64,000 bases of DNA from an uncultured Candidatus Saccharibacteria bacterium (lineage in GTDB: Bacteria > Patescibacteriota > Minisyncoccia > Phycocordibacterales > UBA9973): assembly GCA_964522195.1 (NCBI GenBank), contig CAZFSV010000002.1, forward strand, positions 36,743 through 100,742. The letters run 5' to 3'. Below the pieces are notes generated by a model. It was not told the DNA's origin and made no database searches. It saw only the letters and a program-made list of their open reading frames with translations. Made by a program: the position numbers and the translations under genes. This document shows, piece after piece, positions 53,866 through 61,371 of this stretch (position 1 is the stretch's first letter; every line of letters begins with the position of its first letter).

Positions 53866-54093
53866 ATGAAAAAGTATTTGTTCTTTATATTCGTTGGTTT
53901 TTTTATTTCTTTAACTAGTTGTGGTATTCTTAAAAATCCAGAAAAAGGGAGTTACGAATGGAGCAAGAAATATTCCGGGTCAAGTATGGCCCGTAACCGT
54001 AGCGCAAGTTGCGGAATCAAAAAAACCAAAACTCCATCGTGGGCCAAGGTGAAGTACACTAGTCCAAAAAAAAGTAATAAGAAGAAGAAATAA
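53866..54093 (+). CDS. Small predicted lipoprotein with Lys-rich tail
   Basis: Lipobox L-T-S-C after a hydrophobic signal. K-rich C-terminus. Confidence 0.4.
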   Translation: MKKYLFFIFVGFFISLTSCGILKNPEKGSYEWSKKYSGSSMARNRSASCGIKKTKTPSWAKVKYTSPKKSNKKKK

Positions 54094-54114
54094 AGAACAT
54101 TCTTCTTAAATCCA

Positions 54115-54146
54115 AAAAGCGTTCCAAGTGAACGCTTTTTTTATTT
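54115..54146. terminator. Bidirectional terminator (aaaagcgttc-caagt-gaacgctttt)
   Basis: 10-bp stem with T-run, between lipoprotein (+) and ogt (-). Confidence 0.65.
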
Positions 54147-54440
54147 TATAGCGCCTTCTTTTTTAAGTAATTTGATTTTGTTTTCTCTACCTCTGTTGTA
54201 TTCCCCTGTTTGCCCATCGCTTCTGATCACTCTATGACAAGGTATATTTTTATCATAATTCATTTTCAGTACTGATCCCACAGCCCGAGAAGCTCCTTCG
54301 CTCCCCGCCTTCAAAGCGACTTCTTTATAAGTCATAACTTTCCCGCGAGGGATATTTTTCACAATATCTAAAACTTTTTCTTTAAAGGTTTGCATTTTAA
54401 TTAATTCTAATTTTAATCTTATATTCAGTTTTAATTTCAT
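54141..54440 (-). CDS. ogt: Minimal O6-alkylguanine-DNA alkyltransferase (C-terminal catalytic domain only)
   Basis: Active-site IPCHRVI (PCHR) motif plus a helix-turn-helix DNA-binding region. 99 aa, no N-terminal domain. Confidence 0.8.
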   Translation of the reverse strand: MKLKLNIRLKLELIKMQTFKEKVLDIVKNIPRGKVMTYKEVALKAGSEGASRAVGSVLKMNYDKNIPCHRVIRSDGQTGEYNRGRENKIKLLKKEGAIK

Positions 54441-54481
54441 GTTTGCTTATCGCAGTTTTATACTTATCTAAAATTATCCTT

Positions 54482-55072
54482 CTACGTGTTATTTTTATAA
54501 TATTTATTTTTAAATTTATCAAATAAATTTGTTAAATCATTTTCAATTTCAATTTTGCAAACAAAACAATCTTTTAACTTGGGTGTAATACCTTTTTTAA
54601 GAACACTTAGCGAAAGATCAAATTTATATTCACTTGTATGAACTCCATTTACTATTCTTTTAGTTAATTTTTCCCAATTTATATCTTGTTTTCTTGCAAT
54701 AAGGACATATAAATCATTTGGCGTAAAATCAAGAAAAATAAAAGCATCGTAATTTCTATTTTTAAAAAATTTTTCATGCTGAAATGTATCAGCCGACGCA
54801 CCTATTGTGGCTGTTTTAACTTCAATCTTTATGTCATCTACAACAATATCCCAATATTTATCATTATTAGTTATTGCTTTTTCATATTCAACTTTATATC
54901 TTCTTTTTGTAAAAATTTCATTTAAAAGCAACTCTCCCACTTCCCCAGTGTCATCATTATTTAATTTTTTTATATTCTCATATTTACCACCTTTTGCCCA
55001 ATTATTTTTCTTTTGTTTTCTATTTTCAGGAAGTGATATTAATATATTTTTTATAATTTCTTCTATTTTCAT
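54482..55072 (-). CDS. Putative type II restriction endonuclease (PD-(D/E)xK fold)
   Basis: WDIVVDDIKIEVKTA gives a D...(D/E)xK catalytic pattern. Immediately downstream of, and co-oriented with, a DNA MTase (4-nt gap). Confidence 0.5.
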   Translation of the reverse strand: MKIEEIIKNILISLPENRKQKKNNWAKGGKYENIKKLNNDDTGEVGELLLNEIFTKRRYKVEYEKAITNNDKYWDIVVDDIKIEVKTATIGASADTFQHEKFFKNRNYDAFIFLDFTPNDLYVLIARKQDINWEKLTKRIVNGVHTSEYKFDLSLSVLKKGITPKLKDCFVCKIEIENDLTNLFDKFKNKYYKNNT

Positions 55073-55075
55073 ATT

Positions 55076-56161
55076 TTAAAATAATTTATGATTAAAATCA
55101 TAGTAACCATTTTTAATTAAAACATCTTCAATTAAACTTGTACGTAAGTTTATTGCAGAGTTACTTGAATAAAAAGCTGTTTTTTCCCAATCATGATTTA
55201 ATAATAAATTCTTAATTTTTTCTTTATCTTTTAATATTACAATTCCATATCCTCTACGTTGAGGTAATTCTTCAAAAGAAAGGTATGGTTTTATGTCTTT
55301 ATAGGTTGTAGATGGCAAATAAATATCACATTTATAAAGCATATTTTTATTTCTTGTATTAGAAGGCAATCCTCCATCTGATAAAGAATAAATTTTTATA
55401 TACTGTAAACATGTTTTTCTTTCAGGGATCTTAATATTTTCTGTTTTTATTTTGGTCCACACTTGAAATATAGTATGAATTTTAATTTCCTCACCACTTG
55501 GATATATAAAAGAATTAGGAGGAATAATTTCTGAATATGCTAACTTGTAACCAAAAACTCTTTTTTTAGGAGATCCTTTACCGTCACTATTAAATAGTTG
55601 TGGCAATATAAAAGCAACAACATCAGCAAATTTGTAAGAATGATTAATGAATTGTAAAGCTAAATGACCTCTTAAGCCAAATGGAGGATTTCCCACAACA
55701 AAATATTTAAGATTTTTAGATGGAATCCATTTTAAATAATCATCTTTAATAATAGTTTTTGCTTTTGGGTCTATGTCTATGCCTATAGAGTTTTCTGGTA
55801 AAAATTTCAAAAAACTACCATTTCCAGCTGAAGGTTCAATATAAACATAATCTTTATCATCTATACCTAAATCAGTAATAATTTTTTTAAATTTTTTAAT
55901 ACAACCTAATGCAATATTTTCTTTAGTATAATATTGATCTTTTTCTTTTATAGAAAAATTATCTTCATATTTTACATTTAATAATCTTAAAAAATCTAAT
56001 TGATAATTTTTAGGTACTTTGTTTTGTTGGACCCATCTTTTTACAGTTCCTTTATGTATGCCAAAATGATTTGCTAATCTATCAAGAGTAAAAACATTTA
56101 AAGATTGCTCAAATAGCTGATTAATTTCAAAATTATTTATATTTGTGTTTGTATTTTTCAT
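55076..56161 (-). CDS. N6-adenine DNA methyltransferase, gamma class (M.TaqI-like), with N-terminal HTH extension
   Basis: Motif X DQYYT, motif I EPSAGNGSF, IGIDIDP, motif IV NPPF in M.TaqI order. N-terminal FTLDRLANHFGIHKGTVKRWV HTH. C-terminal target-recognition region. Confidence 0.75.
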   Translation of the reverse strand: MKNTNTNINNFEINQLFEQSLNVFTLDRLANHFGIHKGTVKRWVQQNKVPKNYQLDFLRLLNVKYEDNFSIKEKDQYYTKENIALGCIKKFKKIITDLGIDDKDYVYIEPSAGNGSFLKFLPENSIGIDIDPKAKTIIKDDYLKWIPSKNLKYFVVGNPPFGLRGHLALQFINHSYKFADVVAFILPQLFNSDGKGSPKKRVFGYKLAYSEIIPPNSFIYPSGEEIKIHTIFQVWTKIKTENIKIPERKTCLQYIKIYSLSDGGLPSNTRNKNMLYKCDIYLPSTTYKDIKPYLSFEELPQRRGYGIVILKDKEKIKNLLLNHDWEKTAFYSSNSAINLRTSLIEDVLIKNGYYDFNHKLF

Positions 56162-56329
56162 TTATTTTTTATAAATAAGTAATTAAATTGTCTCATACTT
56201 TTAAGTTTTTTACAATTAAGATTTTAATTAATTATTTATTATATGCAATATATGCTATAAAATCCTATTCCACAGGACAGGTAGTTTTCCCTATTGCGGC
56301 GTAGAAGCCACACCATGAGAATAATGCTA

Positions 56330-56344
56330 CACCCCCACACCAAA
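56330..56344. repeat. Left 15-bp inverted repeat ACCCCCACACCAAAT flanking GIY-YIG ORF (coordinates +/-2)
   Basis: Perfect reverse-complement match to 56605-56619. Confidence 0.7.
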
Positions 56345-56599
56345 TTATTGTACACTATTTTCAATCCTTTTTCTTAATTGCGTAAAAGCTCGACTTCTTA
56401 ACTTTAAATTTGATTCTCTATGTCTTGCATCTTTCTCTGCTTTGTATGCTTCGTAATATACTAACTCAAGAGGTCGTCGAGCTTTTGTGGAAATAACTTT
56501 ACCATCGTTATGTTCTTTAAAACGTTTCCTTAGATCATTTGTTGACCCAGTATAAAATTGATTATCTTTTTTACTTTTTAGAATATAAATGTAAAACAT
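56345..56599 (-). CDS. GIY-YIG nuclease family protein (UPF0213-like, 84 aa)
   Basis: FYIYIL...YTGSTNDLRKRFKEH...E GIY-YIG core. The ORF sits exactly between two 15-bp perfect inverted repeats. Confidence 0.8.
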   Translation of the reverse strand: MFYIYILKSKKDNQFYTGSTNDLRKRFKEHNDGKVISTKARRPLELVYYEAYKAEKDARHRESNLKLRSRAFTQLRKRIENSVQ

Positions 56600-56894
56600 A
56601 ACTTATTTGGTGTGGGGGTAAAAATATTGCGAATCCGGAGAAGAATAAGAGTATTGGGCTCCAGGTTGTGGTTATTGCCCAGACTAATAACCCTACTCCT
56701 ATCAAGAGTCTCAATAGGCGGTCGCCTTTACCTATATTTTTACTACCGCGTCCTTCTTTTCCGACTATTGCATTCTTTGCTAATTTTTTTAGAATTGCTC
56801 GATATAAGAGTCCAAAAATCCCCGCAAGGAGATACATGGCGACGACGAGTCCCCAACCTGTTGTAAAAGTATTTATCATACTTGTATTATACAC
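56571..56894 (-). CDS. Small membrane protein, DUF2892/YgaP-like N-terminal motif
   Basis: NIGKGDRLLRLLIGVGLL resembles the DUF2892 start. Two or three TM helices. GC-enriched DNA leaves both strands open (spurious plus-strand ORFs). The 3' end overlaps the GIY-YIG start and runs through the inverted repeat. Confidence 0.4.
   Translation of the reverse strand: MYNTSMINTFTTGWGLVVAMYLLAGIFGLLYRAILKKLAKNAIVGKEGRGSKNIGKGDRLLRLLIGVGLLVWAITTTWSPILLFFSGFAIFLPPHQISYVLHLYSKK
56605..56619. repeat. Right 15-bp inverted repeat (reverse complement of ACCCCCACACCAAAT)
   Basis: 5 nt upstream of the GIY-YIG ATG on the minus strand. Confidence 0.7.
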
Positions 56895-56914
56895 TGAATC
56901 AAAGTATTAATCTT

Positions 56915-56941
56915 CTTGCGTTAGGTCTTGCCTAACGCAAG
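56915..56941. repeat. Palindromic 27-nt hairpin element copy 1 (cttgcgttagg-tcttg-cctaacgcaag)
   Basis: 11-bp perfect stem. Identical second copy at 57453-57479. Confidence 0.7.
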
Positions 56942-56955
56942 GGTTTAAATAATGT

Positions 56956-56984
56956 TTGACAAATTTAACTTAATATGATATGAT
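56956..56984 (+). promoter_or_regulatory. Candidate promoter TTGACA-17-TATGAT
   Basis: Perfect -35 consensus, 17-nt spacer. Lies just inside hairpin copy 1 and upstream of the small ORF. Confidence 0.4.
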
Positions 56985-57024
56985 ACTGATTGAGGATAAT
57001 GTTGTTCTCAAAAAATTTTATATT

Positions 57025-57264
57025 ATGCCAGCAGAATTATCAGCAGCAAGGGCGAATGAAATCGCCATGATTGTCTTACAAGACAAACTTGAAAATGATG
57101 GTGAATTATCTAGAGTAGTTCCCTCTGAAATCAAGAGACAGGTTCATAATGCGTCAAAAAAAATGGGCATTCCCCCAAAAGAGATTGCCGAATTCATGAA
57201 GCTAATGCTTCAAAAGATGCATACAAAAAACATTGCGGAGCTCGATAAGATAATTGGCTCCTAA
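57025..57264 (+). CDS. Small helical hypothetical protein (79 aa) in GC-enriched cassette
   Basis: ORF with its own promoter and terminator. About 40% GC versus about 29% background. No recognised domain. The ORF track's upstream Met (56980) would overlap the -10 box. Confidence 0.35.
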   Translation: MPAELSAARANEIAMIVLQDKLENDGELSRVVPSEIKRQVHNASKKMGIPPKEIAEFMKLMLQKMHTKNIAELDKIIGS

Positions 57265-57400
57265 ATCAATTCTTTCAGTCAAGGTTGAAGAGTATTCTTC
57301 ACTAAAGGGATAATTCCGATTTGTTATTAGTCGATCTGCTTTGCTGATCTATGCAAGATAAATCTAAGAGAATAAGAACCTAACCTCACTGAAAAAATTT

Positions 57401-57436
57401 GCCCCGTCGCCTAAAAACGACGGGGCTTTTTATTTT
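57401..57436 (+). terminator. Intrinsic terminator (gccccgtcg-cctaaaaa-cgacggggc plus T-run)
   Basis: 9-bp GC-rich stem followed by tttttattttt. Confidence 0.65.
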
Positions 57437-57452
57437 TCCTGTTACGTTAAAT

Positions 57453-57479
57453 CTTGCGTTAGGTCTTGCCTAACGCAAG
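57453..57479. repeat. Palindromic 27-nt hairpin element copy 2
   Basis: Identical to 56915-56941. Sits 3 nt downstream of the stop of minus-strand gene 57483-57911. Confidence 0.7.
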
Positions 57480-57482
57480 ACT

Positions 57483-57911
57483 TTATCTAAAACTACAAGT
57501 TAGTACACATTGCAACGTGCAGATTTGTGCGTCTTTGTCGTGTCTACATGCGGAGGCGCATCCATTCCATTCTCCACCTTTCGCTATACATTGATTTTCA
57601 CTAAAAGAATTAATCTCGCAGACTTTACTCTCTTCATACCAAGTACCTTTTTGAGACTCACAAGATAATTTTTTGTTATCTGGAGCTAGGGTGATTTTAT
57701 CGTTCTCTTTTTGTGGAGGAATATTTTCTGGTTTTATAATTTCTGGAGTTTGAATCTGATTATTATTTTCAGGAATTAAAATATTACTATCTAGTTCATT
57801 TGCTGAATAATCTTGTAATTTAGAATCAGAATTCTTAGCTACATTCAAAGCATAATATCCTCCTCCGACAAATATAATTCCTACCAAAACCCATATTGCT
57901 ATTTTTGACAT
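57483..57911 (-). CDS. Secreted/anchored cysteine-rich protein (10 Cys in C-terminal 60 aa)
   Basis: N-terminal signal-anchor, Pro/Asn/Glu-rich linker, Cys-rich C-terminal module. Confidence 0.45.
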   Translation of the reverse strand: MSKIAIWVLVGIIFVGGGYYALNVAKNSDSKLQDYSANELDSNILIPENNNQIQTPEIIKPENIPPQKENDKITLAPDNKKLSCESQKGTWYEESKVCEINSFSENQCIAKGGEWNGCASACRHDKDAQICTLQCVLTCSFR

Positions 57912-57942
57912 ATATTTTAATTTAATTAATTAATTTTTTAAT

Positions 57943-57963
57943 AATTTAGATTTATCAAAATAT
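57943..57963 (-). promoter_or_regulatory. Shared 21-nt upstream motif AATTTAGATTTATCAAAATAT, copy 1
   Basis: Identical 21-mer at 59840-59860, also upstream of a minus-strand gene. Confidence 0.35.
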
Positions 57964-58059
57964 TTTTCATAATTATTTTTTAAGATACTTAAATTATACC
58001 ATTCTATATTTGATTAATACAGCCGTACAAATACTTGAGTTTTTGTTATAATAAAAATT

Positions 58060-58974
58060 ATGATAAATGCATTTATGGTTTTGCTTCCAGTATTCGGTAT
58101 CATAGCTTTCGGCTATCTTCTGCATAGATATGATATTGTCAAAATAAAATTAGTTCATATATTAAACCTTTTTATCTATTATGTTTCATTACCAGCTCTG
58201 ATTATTAGTTTATTTTGGAATATAGAATTCACTAAGAGCACTCTCGGATTCTTCGGCTTTCATGCAGGACTCATAATTGTACTGAGTTTGATACTAATGC
58301 TAACACTCTCAATATTTAAAATAAATAGTAAAAACAAAATCGCTATAATGCTCGGGGTCATGGTCGGAAATACTGTGTATATGGGCTACCCAATACTAGG
58401 TGCTACTTACCCTGATTTCCCTATTGAAGTCGGTATTGGTGCGGGAGCTATACAACTAATCACTGGTTTGCTAATGGCAGTGTTATTCGTAGAATATATG
58501 ATACTGCGAACAAAGAAACTATCTACATACATACTAGACTTGGCTCGGAATCCGCTCGTTATCGCTTGTATATTGGGTGTGATACTAAGTTTGATACCAC
58601 ACAGTGAAGCTATGAATGCCGGATTTAAAGTTGTATCAGCCTTAGGACAAACAGCAAGTCCACTCGCTTTACTGACACTTGGATTCTTTATGAATAGACA
58701 TATCTCAAAAAAGAGTATCATGCTGGGAAGTATAGCAGTGATGGCGAAGCTCGTAATATTACCTATGGCGGTGTTCATTATATCTATACTGCTCGGTTAT
58801 AGCCGAGAGTTTATACAAGTATCAGTACTGATATCAGCAATGCCTACAGCGGTTACGAGTTTTATTCTCGCAGAGAAATATAACCTAGACGAAAATCTAT
58901 CCGCAGACATAATACTCGCAAGTACCATCTTCTCAATAATAAGCATACCTATTGTGGTGTGGTTGCTCGGATAA
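58060..58974 (+). CDS. AEC-family (auxin efflux carrier / malate permease-like) transporter
   Basis: 10-TM two-repeat topology. N-terminal LLPVFGIIAFGYLL typical of Mem_trans family. Confidence 0.65.
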   Translation: MINAFMVLLPVFGIIAFGYLLHRYDIVKIKLVHILNLFIYYVSLPALIISLFWNIEFTKSTLGFFGFHAGLIIVLSLILMLTLSIFKINSKNKIAIMLGVMVGNTVYMGYPILGATYPDFPIEVGIGAGAIQLITGLLMAVLFVEYMILRTKKLSTYILDLARNPLVIACILGVILSLIPHSEAMNAGFKVVSALGQTASPLALLTLGFFMNRHISKKSIMLGSIAVMAKLVILPMAVFIISILLGYSREFIQVSVLISAMPTAVTSFILAEKYNLDENLSADIILASTIFSIISIPIVVWLLG

Positions 58975-59004
58975 ATACTATTAGTCGTGAATGATATATA
59001 AAAA

Positions 59005-59030
59005 TAAAAAAGCCCCTACTTTTAGGGGCC
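59005..59030 (-). terminator. Terminator for minus-strand gene 59074-59754 (gcccct-loop-aggggc with T-run on minus strand)
   Basis: U-tract present only on the minus strand. Confidence 0.5.
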
Positions 59031-59073
59031 TTGCCTTACGGCAACTAAATGAAAAGTCAATAAAATAATTGGT

Positions 59074-59754
59074 CTAATTTTTTAAGTTTTCAGGTCTTCC
59101 AACCTTGCGAACTTTTCTTGTTTTTGCTTTTGGAATAGGAATTGGTTTACCAGATTCTTCAAAAGCCTTTTGATTTTTCTTTTTATAAGAAACTGTATTT
59201 TTTCTCCTTATTCCTAGAAATTTTTTATCTTCTTCAGATAAGCCATAATCCCAAGAAAGAAAAGTTGGTTTTGAATGCTTTTCAGAATTTATACAAATCC
59301 AGAAATATTGACGAGTTCCTTTTTTACGGTGAATTTCCATTTCGCGTTCACATTTTTTACAAGGACAAAGCGGAGTGTTGTCAATTTTTTGTTTTGTGAT
59401 GCGAGCATATTCTTTCATGTCTACAAAAAAATTTTTGTTTTTTCTTGTGAAATATTGAGTACAATAAATCAAAATATCTCCTTTTGTTAAAATAACCCAT
59501 CCAGCATCAGTCCCTTTATCTCGGAGCTTGTTTTCTTTTTCAAGAAAAGTAGACCAAATTTTCTCAGTATAGGTTCCATTAGAATATTGAAAACCTGTTT
59601 CGTATCCTTGGATTCTTCGAATTCTTTTTTCAAGATCAAGTCTTGTAAAATCTTTATGAATTTGTTTTGATCCAATTTTATGAAAACCCAAAGCTTTCAT
59701 TTCAAGAGCAAACCACTCAAACCCTTCAGGGGTAGGAGTACCATTAACTTCCAT
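59074..59754 (-). CDS. Hypothetical nuclease-like protein with topoisomerase-type zinc ribbon and basic tail
   Basis: CPCKKC...FWIC...EKH four-Cys ribbon similar to zf-C4_Topoisom. Upstream DAGWVILTKGDILIYCTQY segment is reminiscent of NERD/Mrr-type cores. K/R-rich C-terminus. Confidence 0.3.
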   Translation of the reverse strand: MEVNGTPTPEGFEWFALEMKALGFHKIGSKQIHKDFTRLDLEKRIRRIQGYETGFQYSNGTYTEKIWSTFLEKENKLRDKGTDAGWVILTKGDILIYCTQYFTRKNKNFFVDMKEYARITKQKIDNTPLCPCKKCEREMEIHRKKGTRQYFWICINSEKHSKPTFLSWDYGLSEEDKKFLGIRRKNTVSYKKKNQKAFEESGKPIPIPKAKTRKVRKVGRPENLKN

Positions 59755-59839
59755 GATTATTGATTTTTAATGTGAGGAACTATTTTTTTATATCAAAAAT
59801 AATCCTACAATAAAAATAGAATTTTAGCAATATTTTATG

Positions 59840-59860
59840 AATTTAGATTTATCAAAATAT
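59840..59860 (-). promoter_or_regulatory. Shared 21-nt upstream motif, copy 2
   Basis: Identical to 57943-57963. About 85-105 nt upstream of start 59754. Confidence 0.35.
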
Positions 59861-59870
59861 GTTAATAATT

Positions 59871-60725
59871 CTAATAAAACTCTCTCCTGATTTCTTTAGA
59901 ATAATTCGGGACGTCGCCTATTTCTTCTGAAATATCATTCACATAATATTTAAGTCTTGCTTCTTCTATCGATAAATCTGTATCAAGTAAACCTTTCTCT
60001 AGTGCCAACTCATCCGCTGAAGCTGTGAGCCAGAGTTCCCAAGAGAACGGCGAAATACGGTTGGGACTGAGATTATTCACATGCTTGGCAATCATAGAAG
60101 TACAGTTAGAGAAAAAAGTATTATACCATTCAGGCTCCACTATTAATTTATTCATCTTGTTTAACATGTCGACGAGGAGCAGTCGTCCGTTCTCGGGTTT
60201 CTCAAGCTTTATAGGATAGACATAAACTTTATCTTTACGAACGTTAGCACGGAGGAGTATCGTATCTCTCTCGTCCGCGGCGACGTAGATGAGCGGATAA
60301 GTCCGGAGCATACCTTCCCAAATACTATATACTTGATCCTTGGTTTTCAAAGCTTCAATACTAATAGACAAGAAATCTCCATTTTCAAATTCAAAAGATA
60401 CAAAAGTATGCGCCGCTAAATCATTTTCATTAAAAGGTTCAGATATAAACCAAACTTTTTTCACTCCGTTTAGATCATAAGTCTTGTCATAATAGCCCGG
60501 TATCATATCTTTCTCTGTTGGGACATATCTAAAATTACGTACATTCTTCACCGTGACTGAGCCCCCATCTTCCGAGAATTCTGCAGTCGAAGGTATAGCA
60601 AGTTGAGTCTGCCAATCTCCTTCTGTTAGTGGACGCACCGTCATATAATAAATCACATATCCAATAATAAAAATCAATAATAAAAGTCCTAATTTTTTGA
60701 AAAAATTCTTATTTAAAAATTTCAT
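59871..60725 (-). CDS. DUF4105-like (Lnb N-terminal domain-like) membrane-anchored protein
   Basis: N-terminal TM. HTFVSFEF and FFSNCTSM motifs are reminiscent of DUF4105. Assignment from memory of family signatures. Confidence 0.35.
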   Translation of the reverse strand: MKFLNKNFFKKLGLLLLIFIIGYVIYYMTVRPLTEGDWQTQLAIPSTAEFSEDGGSVTVKNVRNFRYVPTEKDMIPGYYDKTYDLNGVKKVWFISEPFNENDLAAHTFVSFEFENGDFLSISIEALKTKDQVYSIWEGMLRTYPLIYVAADERDTILLRANVRKDKVYVYPIKLEKPENGRLLLVDMLNKMNKLIVEPEWYNTFFSNCTSMIAKHVNNLSPNRISPFSWELWLTASADELALEKGLLDTDLSIEEARLKYYVNDISEEIGDVPNYSKEIRREFY

Positions 60726-60786
60726 ATATTTATTGTATCAACATTCTCTTTAATAACAAATTCTAATTTATGATATAATTTTTAAT

Positions 60787-61371
60787 ATGAAAATATTATA
60801 TAGCATAATGATTTTGGTTTTTTTATTTAGTACTAATATAGCTTCAGCAGATTCAATTAACTTGCCCTGTGTTTCATCGCCAGGAGTTGAGTGCCCTCCT
60901 AGTAATGGTAATAGAATAAATCCAAGATGGGATAATCAAACTTTAACATTCACCGAACAATTACAAGACCCGGTAAAATTTTTATTTTTTGTAATTCCAA
61001 TAGCCCTAATAATCATCATTTCTTTTTTAATTTATTTTAAAAATAAAAAAGAAAAAACTCTCAACATTGAAAGAATTAAATTAAGTATCTGGAATCAATT
61101 ATTTTTTCTAATCATAGCTTTAATCGGCTATGCAATTTCTGTTATTTTTAGCACTCTCATTTTTGATAATAATGGTTATTATAATTATTATGATAGATAT
61201 AACAATTACCAAATAATTAAATTAATATCTGTATTTACTTATCCGGTGGCTTCTATTTTAATAGCTCATTACATAACTCTATTTTTAAGACAAAAGGTTC
61301 ATTATATTATTACAACCATCATTTTAATAATTATTGCAGTAATTGGATATTTTACCTTGACTGGTTTTTAA
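60787..61371 (+). CDS. Hypothetical membrane protein (signal peptide plus 4 TM)
   Basis: Hydrophobicity pattern only. Extended -10 (TGATATAAT) about 10 nt upstream. Confidence 0.35.
   Translation: MKILYSIMILVFLFSTNIASADSINLPCVSSPGVECPPSNGNRINPRWDNQTLTFTEQLQDPVKFLFFVIPIALIIIISFLIYFKNKKEKTLNIERIKLSIWNQLFFLIIALIGYAISVIFSTLIFDNNGYYNYYDRYNNYQIIKLISVFTYPVASILIAHYITLFLRQKVHYIITTIILIIIAVIGYFTLTGF

Follow-up and report, generated by a model that had tools for sequence, protein, structure and literature searches.

Several DNA methyltransferases (MTases), namely M.SsoII, M.Ecl18kI, M.EcoRII, M.MspI and M.ScrFIA, carry an N-terminal helix-turn-helix (HTH) of about 70 residues ahead of the catalytic domain, in M.SsoII as residues 1-71 followed by 72-379, and there is precedent for autorepression by MTases through this domain (PMC3874152, PMC3978073, PMC2760811). 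The SsoII-type enzymes are C5-cytosine MTases whose R and M genes diverge and whose operator is a defined inverted repeat. The operators of controller (C) proteins are also inverted repeats, and are bound by HTHs of the Xre type (PMC3874152, PMC2175313). We describe here a restriction-modification (R-M) pair whose MTase shares the N-terminal fusion of an HTH of about 70 residues with the SsoII-type enzymes, but which differs from them in having an N6-adenine rather than a C5-cytosine catalytic domain, a predicted M-then-R operon and no operator that we could find.

The pair lies in a window of 64,000 nucleotides, the whole stretch of DNA that was analysed, and its best explanation, which we consider probable, is a horizontally acquired type II R-M cassette, organised as an M-then-R operon, with an alkyltransferase gene (ogt) merely flanking it. 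It resembles the orthodox type II (IIP-like) systems in its adjoining, co-directional genes for an MTase and a small PD-(D/E)xK restriction endonuclease (REase), in a linkage kept between hosts, in a GC content below that of the host and in the exchange of cassettes at a hot spot, and differs from them in that no member of this M/R family could here be tied to a characterised enzyme. The three open reading frames of the original prediction are all present where they had been placed, and lie on the minus strand: one of 361 aa at 55076-56161, one of 196 aa at 54482-55072 and one of 99 aa at 54141-54440. The features of the first are:

55076..56161, minus strand: HTH-fused gamma-class N6-adenine DNA methyltransferase, 361 aa
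55982..56125, minus strand: four-helix HTH domain, MTase residues 13-60 (family alignment, AF2 model, profiles)
55679..55939, minus strand: catalytic core motifs of the MTase in gamma order (ORF translation and family alignment)
55925-55939, minus strand: motif X, DQYYT, residues 75-79
within 55811-55843, minus strand: motif I, IEPSAGNGSF (EPSAGNG at residues 109-115)
55766-55783, minus strand: motif II, GIDIDP (DIDP at residues 129-132)
55679-55690, minus strand: motif IV, NPPF, residues 158-161

Gamma-class N6-adenine enzymes are marked by the motif order X, I, II, IV, with the target recognition domain after the catalytic core, and the motifs are found here in the order that had been proposed. 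DQYYT, EPSAGNG, DIDP and NPPF all occupy positions that do not vary in the family alignment, and only about 40 residues separate motif I from motif IV. The description of the enzyme as 'M.TaqI-like' is right at the level of class and fold. It does not extend to the M.TaqI family proper, as there is no match to the Pfam models Eco57I (PF07669), TaqI_C (PF12950) or N6_Mtase, and the similarity to the M.TaqI sequence is marginal (E = 0.004 over 70 residues). There is likewise no match to DNA_methylase (PF00145), the core being of the NPPF N6A/gamma type. Compared with M.TaqI, M.BseCI, CamA and the MTase domain of MmeI, the present enzyme is smaller and has the additional N-terminal HTH. A name for it was sought in annotated phage and plasmid records, where the catalytic domain alone matches, at <45% identity, and only generic annotations are given. 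Membership of MADS/MAD1 was rejected, with 17.5 bits against the NF047737 cut-off of 80; the PADLOC mad1 match (E = 0.0011) is confined to the HTH. PF26055 occurs as a precomputed assignment on some homologues.

The second reading frame gives the following features:

54482..55072, minus strand: PD-(D/E)xK restriction endonuclease, 196 aa
54932-54934, minus strand: catalytic candidate E47
54848-54850, minus strand: catalytic candidate D75
54815-54823, minus strand: catalytic candidates E84-V-K86
54773-54781, minus strand: QHE motif

The gene had been expected close downstream of the MTase on the same strand, and indeed starts 3 nt past the MTase stop codon, so the two are probably translationally coupled, and together they would form a minus-strand operon of M followed by R. 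The proposed D...ExK signature corresponds to D75 and E84-V-K86, which, with E47, are invariant through the REase family in the alignment and intact in the window copy, and the model (pLDDT 87) has the alpha-beta-beta-beta-alpha-beta core of the PD-(D/E)xK superfamily, in which the first helix bears an acidic residue, strand 2 the D and strand 3 the (D/E)xK. Profile comparison places both proteins (PADLOC MTase_II, 1.8e-49; REase_II, 2.4e-5).

The pair is also conserved. Of 80 genome loci from many phyla, 64 have a homologue of the REase immediately after the MTase, the genes being adjoining, co-directional and often overlapping, in otherwise unrelated contexts. Separate, adjacent M and R genes with a linkage kept between genomes are a mark of type II systems, and the persistence of the pair in so many unrelated genomes shows it to be a type II R-M module; its family is large and lies outside Pfam, which has a model for neither protein. 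For the MTase there are upwards of 2800 homologues and for the REase 573 cluster representatives, and the family ranges over Helicobacter, Campylobacter, Brachyspira, phytoplasmas, Rickettsiales, CPR bacteria and DPANN archaea; among the complete genomes with the pair are those of Ca. Phytoplasma australiense (AM422018), Brachyspira pilosicoli and Helicobacter bilis. The original prediction of a type II pair, a gamma-class N6A MTase with a PD-(D/E)xK REase, is thus upheld by profile matches, fold and kept synteny; both genes are intact, with their motifs, folds and M-R linkage. The predicted MTase would mark a short site wherever it occurs in the host DNA, while unmarked incoming DNA would be cut by the predicted REase. 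As an R-M system the pair is genuine but ordinary, one further type II pair, carried as an exchangeable cassette by a bacterial genome that is small, AT-rich and reduced, probably of the Patescibacteria type; the locus nevertheless defines a very large M/R family, neither protein of which is modelled in Pfam.

A candidate for the short site comes from palindrome avoidance, which is informative only once 84 host loci are pooled; in the window alone several 4-mers are mildly depleted, none decisively or significantly. In the pooled loci GATATC is the most depleted of 2080 hexamers (86 observed vs 196.7 expected, z = -7.9), and it falls under expectation in 72 of 80 loci. Depletion is seen in the flanks only (54 vs 105), in REase-bearing loci (71 vs 173) and in the window (10 vs 18.1). 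The sister contig, L190, has 5 copies against 5.0 expected and control CPR loci without this R-M system have 280 against 281, with no depletion in either case, though the host loci avoid palindromes more than the control set overall and the control is therefore imperfect. This strong avoidance in family-bearing host loci leads us to predict an EcoRV-type specificity, and we propose GATATC, with moderate confidence, as the recognition site of the pair, a prediction that is concrete and cheap. A literature search for a GATATC methylome link found nothing relevant. EcoRV is present among the structural matches of the REase and an alignment puts the catalytic D...(D/E)xK segments of the two in register. 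The likeness to the R.EcoRV branch (PvuII, NaeI, HincII, MspI, ThaI, DpnI, SwaI) is, however, one of fold only and homology by sequence is not significant: comparison of the REase sequence and profile with PDB sequences gave nothing meaningful, EcoRV was absent at E <= 10 from an hmmsearch of PDB sequences with the REase profile, and hhalign of the profile against an approximate EcoRV sequence gave E = 0.06 with a probability below 1%. The REase is also shorter than R.EcoRV (196 vs 245 aa), and its partner is a gamma-class MTase, whereas M.EcoRV belongs to the alpha class.

The MTase does have the N-terminal HTH that had been proposed for it. Four helices span residues 13-60 in the AF2 model (pLDDT about 90), the catalytic domain begins at about residue 72, HTH_23 is matched by 17 of 24 family HTHs and HTH_17 by 15 of 24, and the best PDB profile match is the DNA-binding domain of RacA (E = 0.003). 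Its description as 'C-protein-like' has to be given up: the domain resembles the HTH_17, HTH_23 and MerR-excisionase types, not the Xre-type C proteins, with a weak match to HTH_3 in 6 of 24 only and no conserved inverted repeat upstream of the MTase genes. The HTH occurs throughout the family, though some members have lost or lack it. It is separable, because HTH-less relatives exist, among them some CPR variants; these are about 295 aa long and begin at about residue 70, and since they keep the same REase partner the HTH is an accessory module. A separate HTH gene was sought upstream of the HTH-less MTases and none was found.

The regulatory HTH of M.SsoII and M.Ecl18kI is a nearer functional analogy than the C proteins, and by that analogy autoregulation is plausible: with moderate confidence, we suggest that through the HTH the MTase may bind close to its own promoter and so damp expression of the operon. 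Such a role would extend SsoII-type control from C5 to N6A methyltransferases. In 74 upstream regions, neither k-mer enrichment nor visual comparison disclosed a common motif (the small excesses of AAATTTGC, 7 vs 0.7, and AAAATATC, 8 vs 1.4, were not taken as real), GATAT half-sites are not enriched upstream of MTase genes, and the coding strand of the window's leader holds no sigma-70-like promoter scoring at least 9/12. Many homologues have no intergenic leader, and this, with the lack of a conserved upstream motif, weakens the autoregulation step. A less likely reading, within the same R-M assignment, is that the HTH takes no part in the control of transcription and is a DNA-binding accessory for target search, site recognition or tethering, in which case the recognition helix would touch the site to be methylated or the backbone of the DNA, and not an operator in a promoter. 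The invariance of T39, R42 and W43 in the recognition helix, and of P50, Y53 and D56, through bacteria and archaea fits such a role, and the pTM of 0.85 suggests that the HTH packs into a single compact MTase model; the closest homologue (80% identity) has its own 62-aa HTH_17 gene immediately upstream of the MTase, which could be the real regulator there. The HTH-less variants with the same REase partner argue the other way, as the HTH would be dispensable for methylation of the cognate site, and autorepression is the role known for the sole characterised MTases with an N-terminal HTH of about 70 residues (PMC3874152, PMC3978073).

The extent of the cassette was given by comparison with the sister contig, which is collinear with the window and diverges from it at 54402-56284 and again at about 56716-61366. 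The segments concerned are:

54402..56284, minus strand: R-M cassette, genome-specific segment (blastn breakpoints with L190, and GC)
56331..56619, minus strand: GIY-YIG mini-element of about 289 bp (inverted repeats, PF01541, comparison with L106)
56331-56345 and 56605-56619: 15-bp perfect terminal inverted repeats of the element
56345-56599, minus strand: 84-aa GIY-YIG ORF (PF01541, 2.8e-17)
56571-56894 (N part, ORF) and 56265-56330 (C part): interrupted DUF2892/YgaP-like gene

The blastn match to the sister contig ends at 56285 and restarts at 54401, and what lies between comprises the MTase and REase genes, preceded by a leader of 123 nt and followed by a trailer of 80 nt. The GC content of the cassette is 23.6%, against 36.9% for ogt and 29.8% for the whole window. 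Between the same flanks the sister contig has a different R-M system, with an Eco57I-type MTase and a Tsp45I-type REase, together with a 217-aa gene and a NUDIX gene; the two related genomes show, as a clean case from nature, how one R-M cassette replaces another in a single slot of the chromosome. The segment 54402-56284 would then be a self-contained type II R-M cassette gained horizontally, its slot a recombination hot spot between the GIY-YIG-interrupted DUF2892 gene and the resident ogt. That a conserved core gives way to an island at this point, as had been claimed, is roughly right, as the GltX-M23 gene order is kept in about 70 of 80 relatives and the variation lies upstream of GltX.

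Adjacent to the cassette, then, the DUF2892 gene is interrupted by a GIY-YIG element bounded by inverted repeats, while L106 has an uninterrupted DUF2892 homologue. The conserved CCCCACACCAA terminal inverted repeats form the same core in 6 independent contexts and the element, with 730 homologues, is highly conserved through many metagenomes; it shares 92% nucleotide identity with the sister contig, where the backbone shares 75-84%. Splicing or bypass of the insertion is less likely than simple disruption, because the 5' part of the DUF2892 gene is absent in the sister contig. Rfam searches of the whole window and of the GIY-YIG/DUF2892 region gave one tRNA only, elsewhere in the window, and a literature search for such an element found nothing relevant. 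One might go further and see the cassette as an allele of a defence-gene exchange hot spot made or maintained by the GIY-YIG element, with the MTase as the first N6-adenine self-repressor of the SsoII type and its partner as a miniature EcoRV-like GATATC endonuclease. We consider this combination unlikely; if true, the element would be a minimal homing or transposable element of a class not described before, whose double-strand breaks would drive co-conversion of the flanks and so swap neighbouring R-M systems.

Less likely again is a reading of the 196-aa protein as a PD-(D/E)xK nuclease of another kind, for instance a homing endonuclease or a resolvase of the Hjc type, or as an inactive remnant next to an MTase that stands alone. 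Its best fold matches do include the homing endonuclease I-Ssp6803I and Hjc resolvases besides REases, its PADLOC REase match is weak, and 16 of the 80 MTase loci have no detectable nuclease partner. The tight M-then-R linkage between phyla is nonetheless a signature of type II R-M, every family-invariant catalytic residue of the window copy is intact, and avoidance of GATATC is greater in loci that bear the nuclease (O/E 0.41 vs 0.64).

The remaining features concern ogt and the cassette leader:

54141..54395, minus strand: ogt, single-domain O6-alkylguanine-DNA alkyltransferase, probably 84 aa from M16 (the ORF reaches 54440)
54231-54242, minus strand: PCHR active site of ogt
54114..54140, unstranded: hairpin with T/A runs directly 3' of the ogt stop
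56241..56255, unstranded: direct repeat ATATGC-AAT-ATATGC within the cassette leader, taken as a chance feature and not an operator

Ogt has, like the Ogt/MGMT family, a DNA_binding_1 domain above cut-off (PF01035, 3.1e-27, 94.7 bits against 27; TIGR00589, 7.2e-21, 74 bits against 46.4) and the PCHR cysteine acceptor, and differs in consisting of the C-terminal domain alone. The predicted domain-only protein thus stands, but with a probable start at M16 (54395) and 84 rather than 99 residues; the orthologue in L190 has 85 aa, and its homology with the window begins at 54401. MGMT-family proteins repair alkyl lesions, and we know of no anti-phage role for them. Ogt would serve housekeeping repair of alkyl damage, merely flanking the cassette slot; it is a resident backbone gene outside the cassette, functionally and evolutionarily unconnected to it.

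A three-gene defence cluster of Ogt and the R-M pair, under a fused C-protein-like HTH that binds ATATGC-N3-ATATGC, is therefore largely refuted and most improbable: although the three genes share a strand with short gaps and the repeat lies in cassette-specific DNA, 80-95 nt upstream of the MTase ATG, ogt is kept in L190 beside another R-M system, did not adjoin the pair in any of the other genomes and differs in GC, and the HTH is not of the Xre type that binds the inverted-repeat operators of C proteins (PMC3874152, PMC2175313). The repeat is present, 3 nt from the position first given, but not above chance, a 6-mer direct repeat at a spacing of 0-10 arising in 56% of shuffles of the intergenic region and 141 period-9 6-mer direct repeats occurring in the window; none of 74 HTH-bearing homologues, the closest among them, has it upstream, and it was rejected as an operator. 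The hairpin at 54114-54140, the sole terminator-like site in 53900-57000, comes after ogt and, judged from its sequence, is likely to act as a terminator in both directions and to end a transcript that reads through from the MTase and REase into ogt.

The original prediction placed three consecutive ORFs on the minus strand, encoding a methyltransferase, an endonuclease and an O6-alkylguanine alkyltransferase (Ogt), and we found all three at exactly the positions it gave, together with every motif it quoted (DQYYT, IEPSAGNGSF, GIDIDP, NPPF, WDIVVDD-IKIEVK and PCHR). The start codon (ATG) of the endonuclease lies 3 nt past the stop codon of the methyltransferase.

Features of the R-M locus and its flanks
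54114-54140, hairpin with an 11-bp stem and A and T runs on either side, between the convergent ogt and a 75-aa plus-strand ORF
54141-54440, minus strand, Ogt ORF as first called, 99 aa
54402-56284, minus strand, cassette: 123-nt leader, methyltransferase, endonuclease, 80-nt trailer
54482-55072, minus strand, endonuclease ORF, 196 aa
55076-56161, minus strand, methyltransferase ORF, 361 aa
56331-56619, GIY-YIG mini-element, 289 bp, enclosing an 84-aa GIY-YIG nuclease ORF
56345-56599, minus strand, GIY-YIG ORF, 84 aa, 183 nt upstream of the methyltransferase
56331-56345 and 56605-56619, perfect 15-bp inverted repeats, ACCCCCACACCAAAT and its complement
~56716-61366, 94-aa ORF, most of a 142-aa ORF, Mem_trans, 226-aa ORF, Lnb_N, 187-aa ORF

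By its tested features the pair is a predicted type II R-M system, composed of a gamma-class N6-adenine methyltransferase and a PD-(D/E)xK endonuclease, and the claim is upheld by linkage as well as by motifs and predicted folds. A homologue of the 196-aa endonuclease lies immediately downstream of the methyltransferase in 64 of the 80 genome loci retrieved with the methyltransferase profile, which include Helicobacter, Campylobacter, Brachyspira pilosicoli, Ca. Phytoplasma australiense, Rickettsiales, Endomicrobia, Paceibacterota, Saccharibacteria and Micrarchaeota. The neighbourhoods are unrelated: in a Parcubacteria contig the pair is flanked by PvlArgDC and SecA, in a second contig it follows DnaJ, in a Nanoarchaeota contig its arrangement is convergent, and elsewhere it has a RES-domain gene next to it. 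Such recurrent linkage is what type II R-M modules characteristically show.

The methyltransferase is assigned to the gamma class because motif I precedes motif IV by some 40 residues with no target recognition domain between them. Its catalytic positions (E109, P110 and G113 of motif I, D129, and N158-P-P-F161) are invariant in a 28-member alignment, and the AF2 model (pLDDT 88, pTM 0.85) has a Rossmann-type core preceded by four helices (residues 13-60). The REBASE-derived PADLOC model PDLC03280 (MTase_II) matches residues 70-348 (1.8e-49). M.TaqI is the best solved relative by sequence, with a match limited to residues 108-177 (E = 0.004); a Pfam search returned only sub-threshold HTH matches and no methyltransferase family, and the M.TaqI Pfam families were rejected as a home for the enzyme. 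The description 'M.TaqI-like' thus holds at the level of class and fold and fails at that of family. The methyltransferase has more than 2879 homologues, nearly all of about 350 aa (query coverage 94-98%), and the endonuclease 573 cluster representatives, mostly of 180-200 aa, in an exhaustive profile search; this is a large family without a Pfam model, for which we found no link to a characterised enzyme. The system is not a member of the C-protein, C5 SsoII, EcoRV or MADS families.

The 196-aa ORF proved to have the invariant catalytic residues and predicted fold of a PD-(D/E)xK endonuclease. Among 26 homologues E47, D75, E84, K86, Q98-H-E100 and Y108-D109 are invariant, and in the AF2 model (pLDDT 87) the first long helix carries E47, while D75 and E84-x-K86 lie on successive strands; Foldseek concurs, so that both lend the nuclease fold their support. 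The outcome that the original prediction had named as counting against it, an ORF with no backing for a nuclease fold, thus did not arise. PADLOC REase_II matches weakly (2.4e-5), and searches of the PDB by sequence and by profile gave no matches.

With expected counts taken throughout from a maximal-order Markov model, none of the 2080 strand-symmetric hexamers is as depleted in the 84 pooled host loci (551 kb) as GATATC (z = -7.9), which occurs 86 times against 196.7 expected and falls below expectation in 72 of 80 loci. The flanks alone contain 54 (105 expected), loci with the endonuclease 71 (173 expected), loci without it 15 (23 expected), and the window alone 10 (18.1 expected), with none in the cassette. 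For the window by itself, palindrome avoidance does not reach significance. CPR loci lacking this R-M system (831 kb), an imperfect control, have 280 against 281, and L190, a collinear sister contig, 5 against 5.0. From the depletion in the pooled host loci we infer GATATC as the likely recognition site, at roughly an even chance. Fold-level similarity of the endonuclease to EcoRV-branch enzymes lends this weak support; its profile alignment to EcoRV, made with an approximate EcoRV sequence, was not significant.

The N-terminal HTH was originally taken for a fused, C-protein-like controller. Its profile matches the RacA DNA-binding domain (E = 0.003), and 17 of 24 family members touch HTH_23 and 15 HTH_17, so the domain is a true HTH, MerR/excisionase/homeodomain-like in type, rather than an Xre-type C protein. 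Nor is it a local fusion: the domain is family-wide, with F17, T39, R42, W43, P50, Y53 and D56 invariant in the 28-member alignment. Six CPR loci from Paceibacterota and Saccharibacteria (L032, L035, L052, L056, L058 and L068) encode methyltransferases of about 295-312 aa that begin at around residue 70 and lack the HTH, with the same endonuclease directly downstream; a separate HTH ORF was sought in these six loci and none was detected. Since the partner is kept, methylation would not require the HTH, whose role could then be an accessory one, most simply regulatory. The architecture resembles that of the self-regulating SsoII-type enzymes, although the SsoII family proper consists of C5 methyltransferases and the present N6-adenine enzyme is not a member. 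In M.EcoRII, M.SsoII, M.Ecl18kI, M.MspI and M.ScrFIA the N-terminal HTH represses the enzyme's own promoter (PMC3874152), and in M.SsoII regulation resides in residues 1-71 and catalysis in 72-379 (PMC3978073, PMC2760811). A DNA-binding module with no regulatory role is a live alternative, favoured by a recognition helix that is invariant while the upstream DNA is unconserved.

The regulatory reading had been given an operator, the direct repeat ATATGC-N3-ATATGC. The repeat exists (ATATGC-AAT-ATATGC, 56241-56255, 3 nt from the position first quoted) and is unremarkable: the window holds 141 hexamer repeats of equal 9-nt period, and when the 183-nt intergenic region is shuffled, a hexamer repeat at spacing 0-10 turns up in 56% of cases. 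At this chance level, and missing from the closest homologue, L196, it does not stand as an operator. Across 74 upstream regions we found no enriched k-mer, inverted repeat or GATAT half-site, and in several homologues the preceding gene directly adjoins the methyltransferase. L196, whose methyltransferase is 80% identical, has its own 62-aa HTH_17/excisionase-like gene (789-977) ending 2 nt before the methyltransferase start, possibly a stand-alone regulator or a mobile-element remnant; this small gene is itself preceded by an Ogg-HhH glycosylase-like gene. At locus L011 (~2830-2967) a sequence of ~50 nt (…atttaatcaaatattatcagaaaacaaaacaacttataataaaaca) is tandemly duplicated directly upstream of the methyltransferase ATG.

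The boundaries of the system emerge from L190, a 16.5-kb contig of a related organism with 75-92% nucleotide identity to the window, which shares the order MurG, YgjP-like, GIY-YIG element, ogt, GltX, M23 peptidase, YibE_F, L27. Homology stops at 56285 and restarts at 54401, which delimits the window-specific cassette (54402-56284; GC 23.6%, against 29.8% for the whole window and 36.9% for ogt). The corresponding slot in L190 (7330-10564), between the GIY-YIG/DUF2892 remnant and ogt, holds different genes: an Eco57I-type methyltransferase (388 aa), a Tsp45I-type endonuclease (261 aa), a 217-aa gene and a NUDIX gene. On this comparison the slot is an R-M replacement hot spot, and Ogt, which had been counted in the defence cluster, is a resident repair gene flanking it, outside any such cluster: it is kept in L190 beside a different R-M system and is never the next gene to the pair among the 80 genome loci. 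Codons 1-15 of the 99-aa ORF (54396-54440) fall in cassette-specific DNA, and homology to the 85-aa sister Ogt begins 6 nt before the second Met, so the real gene is probably 54141-54395 (84 aa, from M16). The hairpin at 54114-54140, the only terminator-like site within 53900-57000, is likely a bidirectional terminator.

On the other side of the slot, the GIY-YIG unit splits a DUF2892/YgaP-like membrane protein gene into 56265-56330 and 56571-56894 (minus strand). Comparison of the intact homologue L106 (454-1332; ...FFAGFCFF-EAIFSWC...) with the window junction (...FFSGFAIF[insert]VALFSWC...) gives an insertion of 288-291 nt, whose length is a multiple of three, yet which has stop codons; as L190 lacks the 5' part of the gene, the insertion probably inactivates it rather than being spliced out. 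Six independent contexts have GIY-YIG homologues (identity 73% or more) flanked by the repeat core CCCCACACCAA, and in four of them R-M or defence genes are adjacent. Outside the window, homologues of the element occur at L190, L172-L179, L180-L189, L192-L194 and L195, and 730 GIY-YIG homologues were found in metagenomes. No Rfam family matched the element and our literature search found no description of it. Over the element and ~140 nt of DUF2892 flanks (56285-56715, L190 6899-7329) the two contigs share 92% identity, whereas their backbone genes share 75-84%, which suggests recent mobility or transfer, or homing with co-conversion of the flanks. The unit could be a homing or transposable element of minimal form, and could play a part in the turnover of cassettes at the slot.

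The original prediction also had a conserved core giving way to variable DNA here, and this fits relatives further removed (GltX identity of 74% or less), which retain GltX-M23 and have nothing in common with the window upstream of GltX. A second segment, ~56716-61366, differs from L190, where only 78 nt of it have a counterpart, so that the variable region reaches beyond the R-M cassette.
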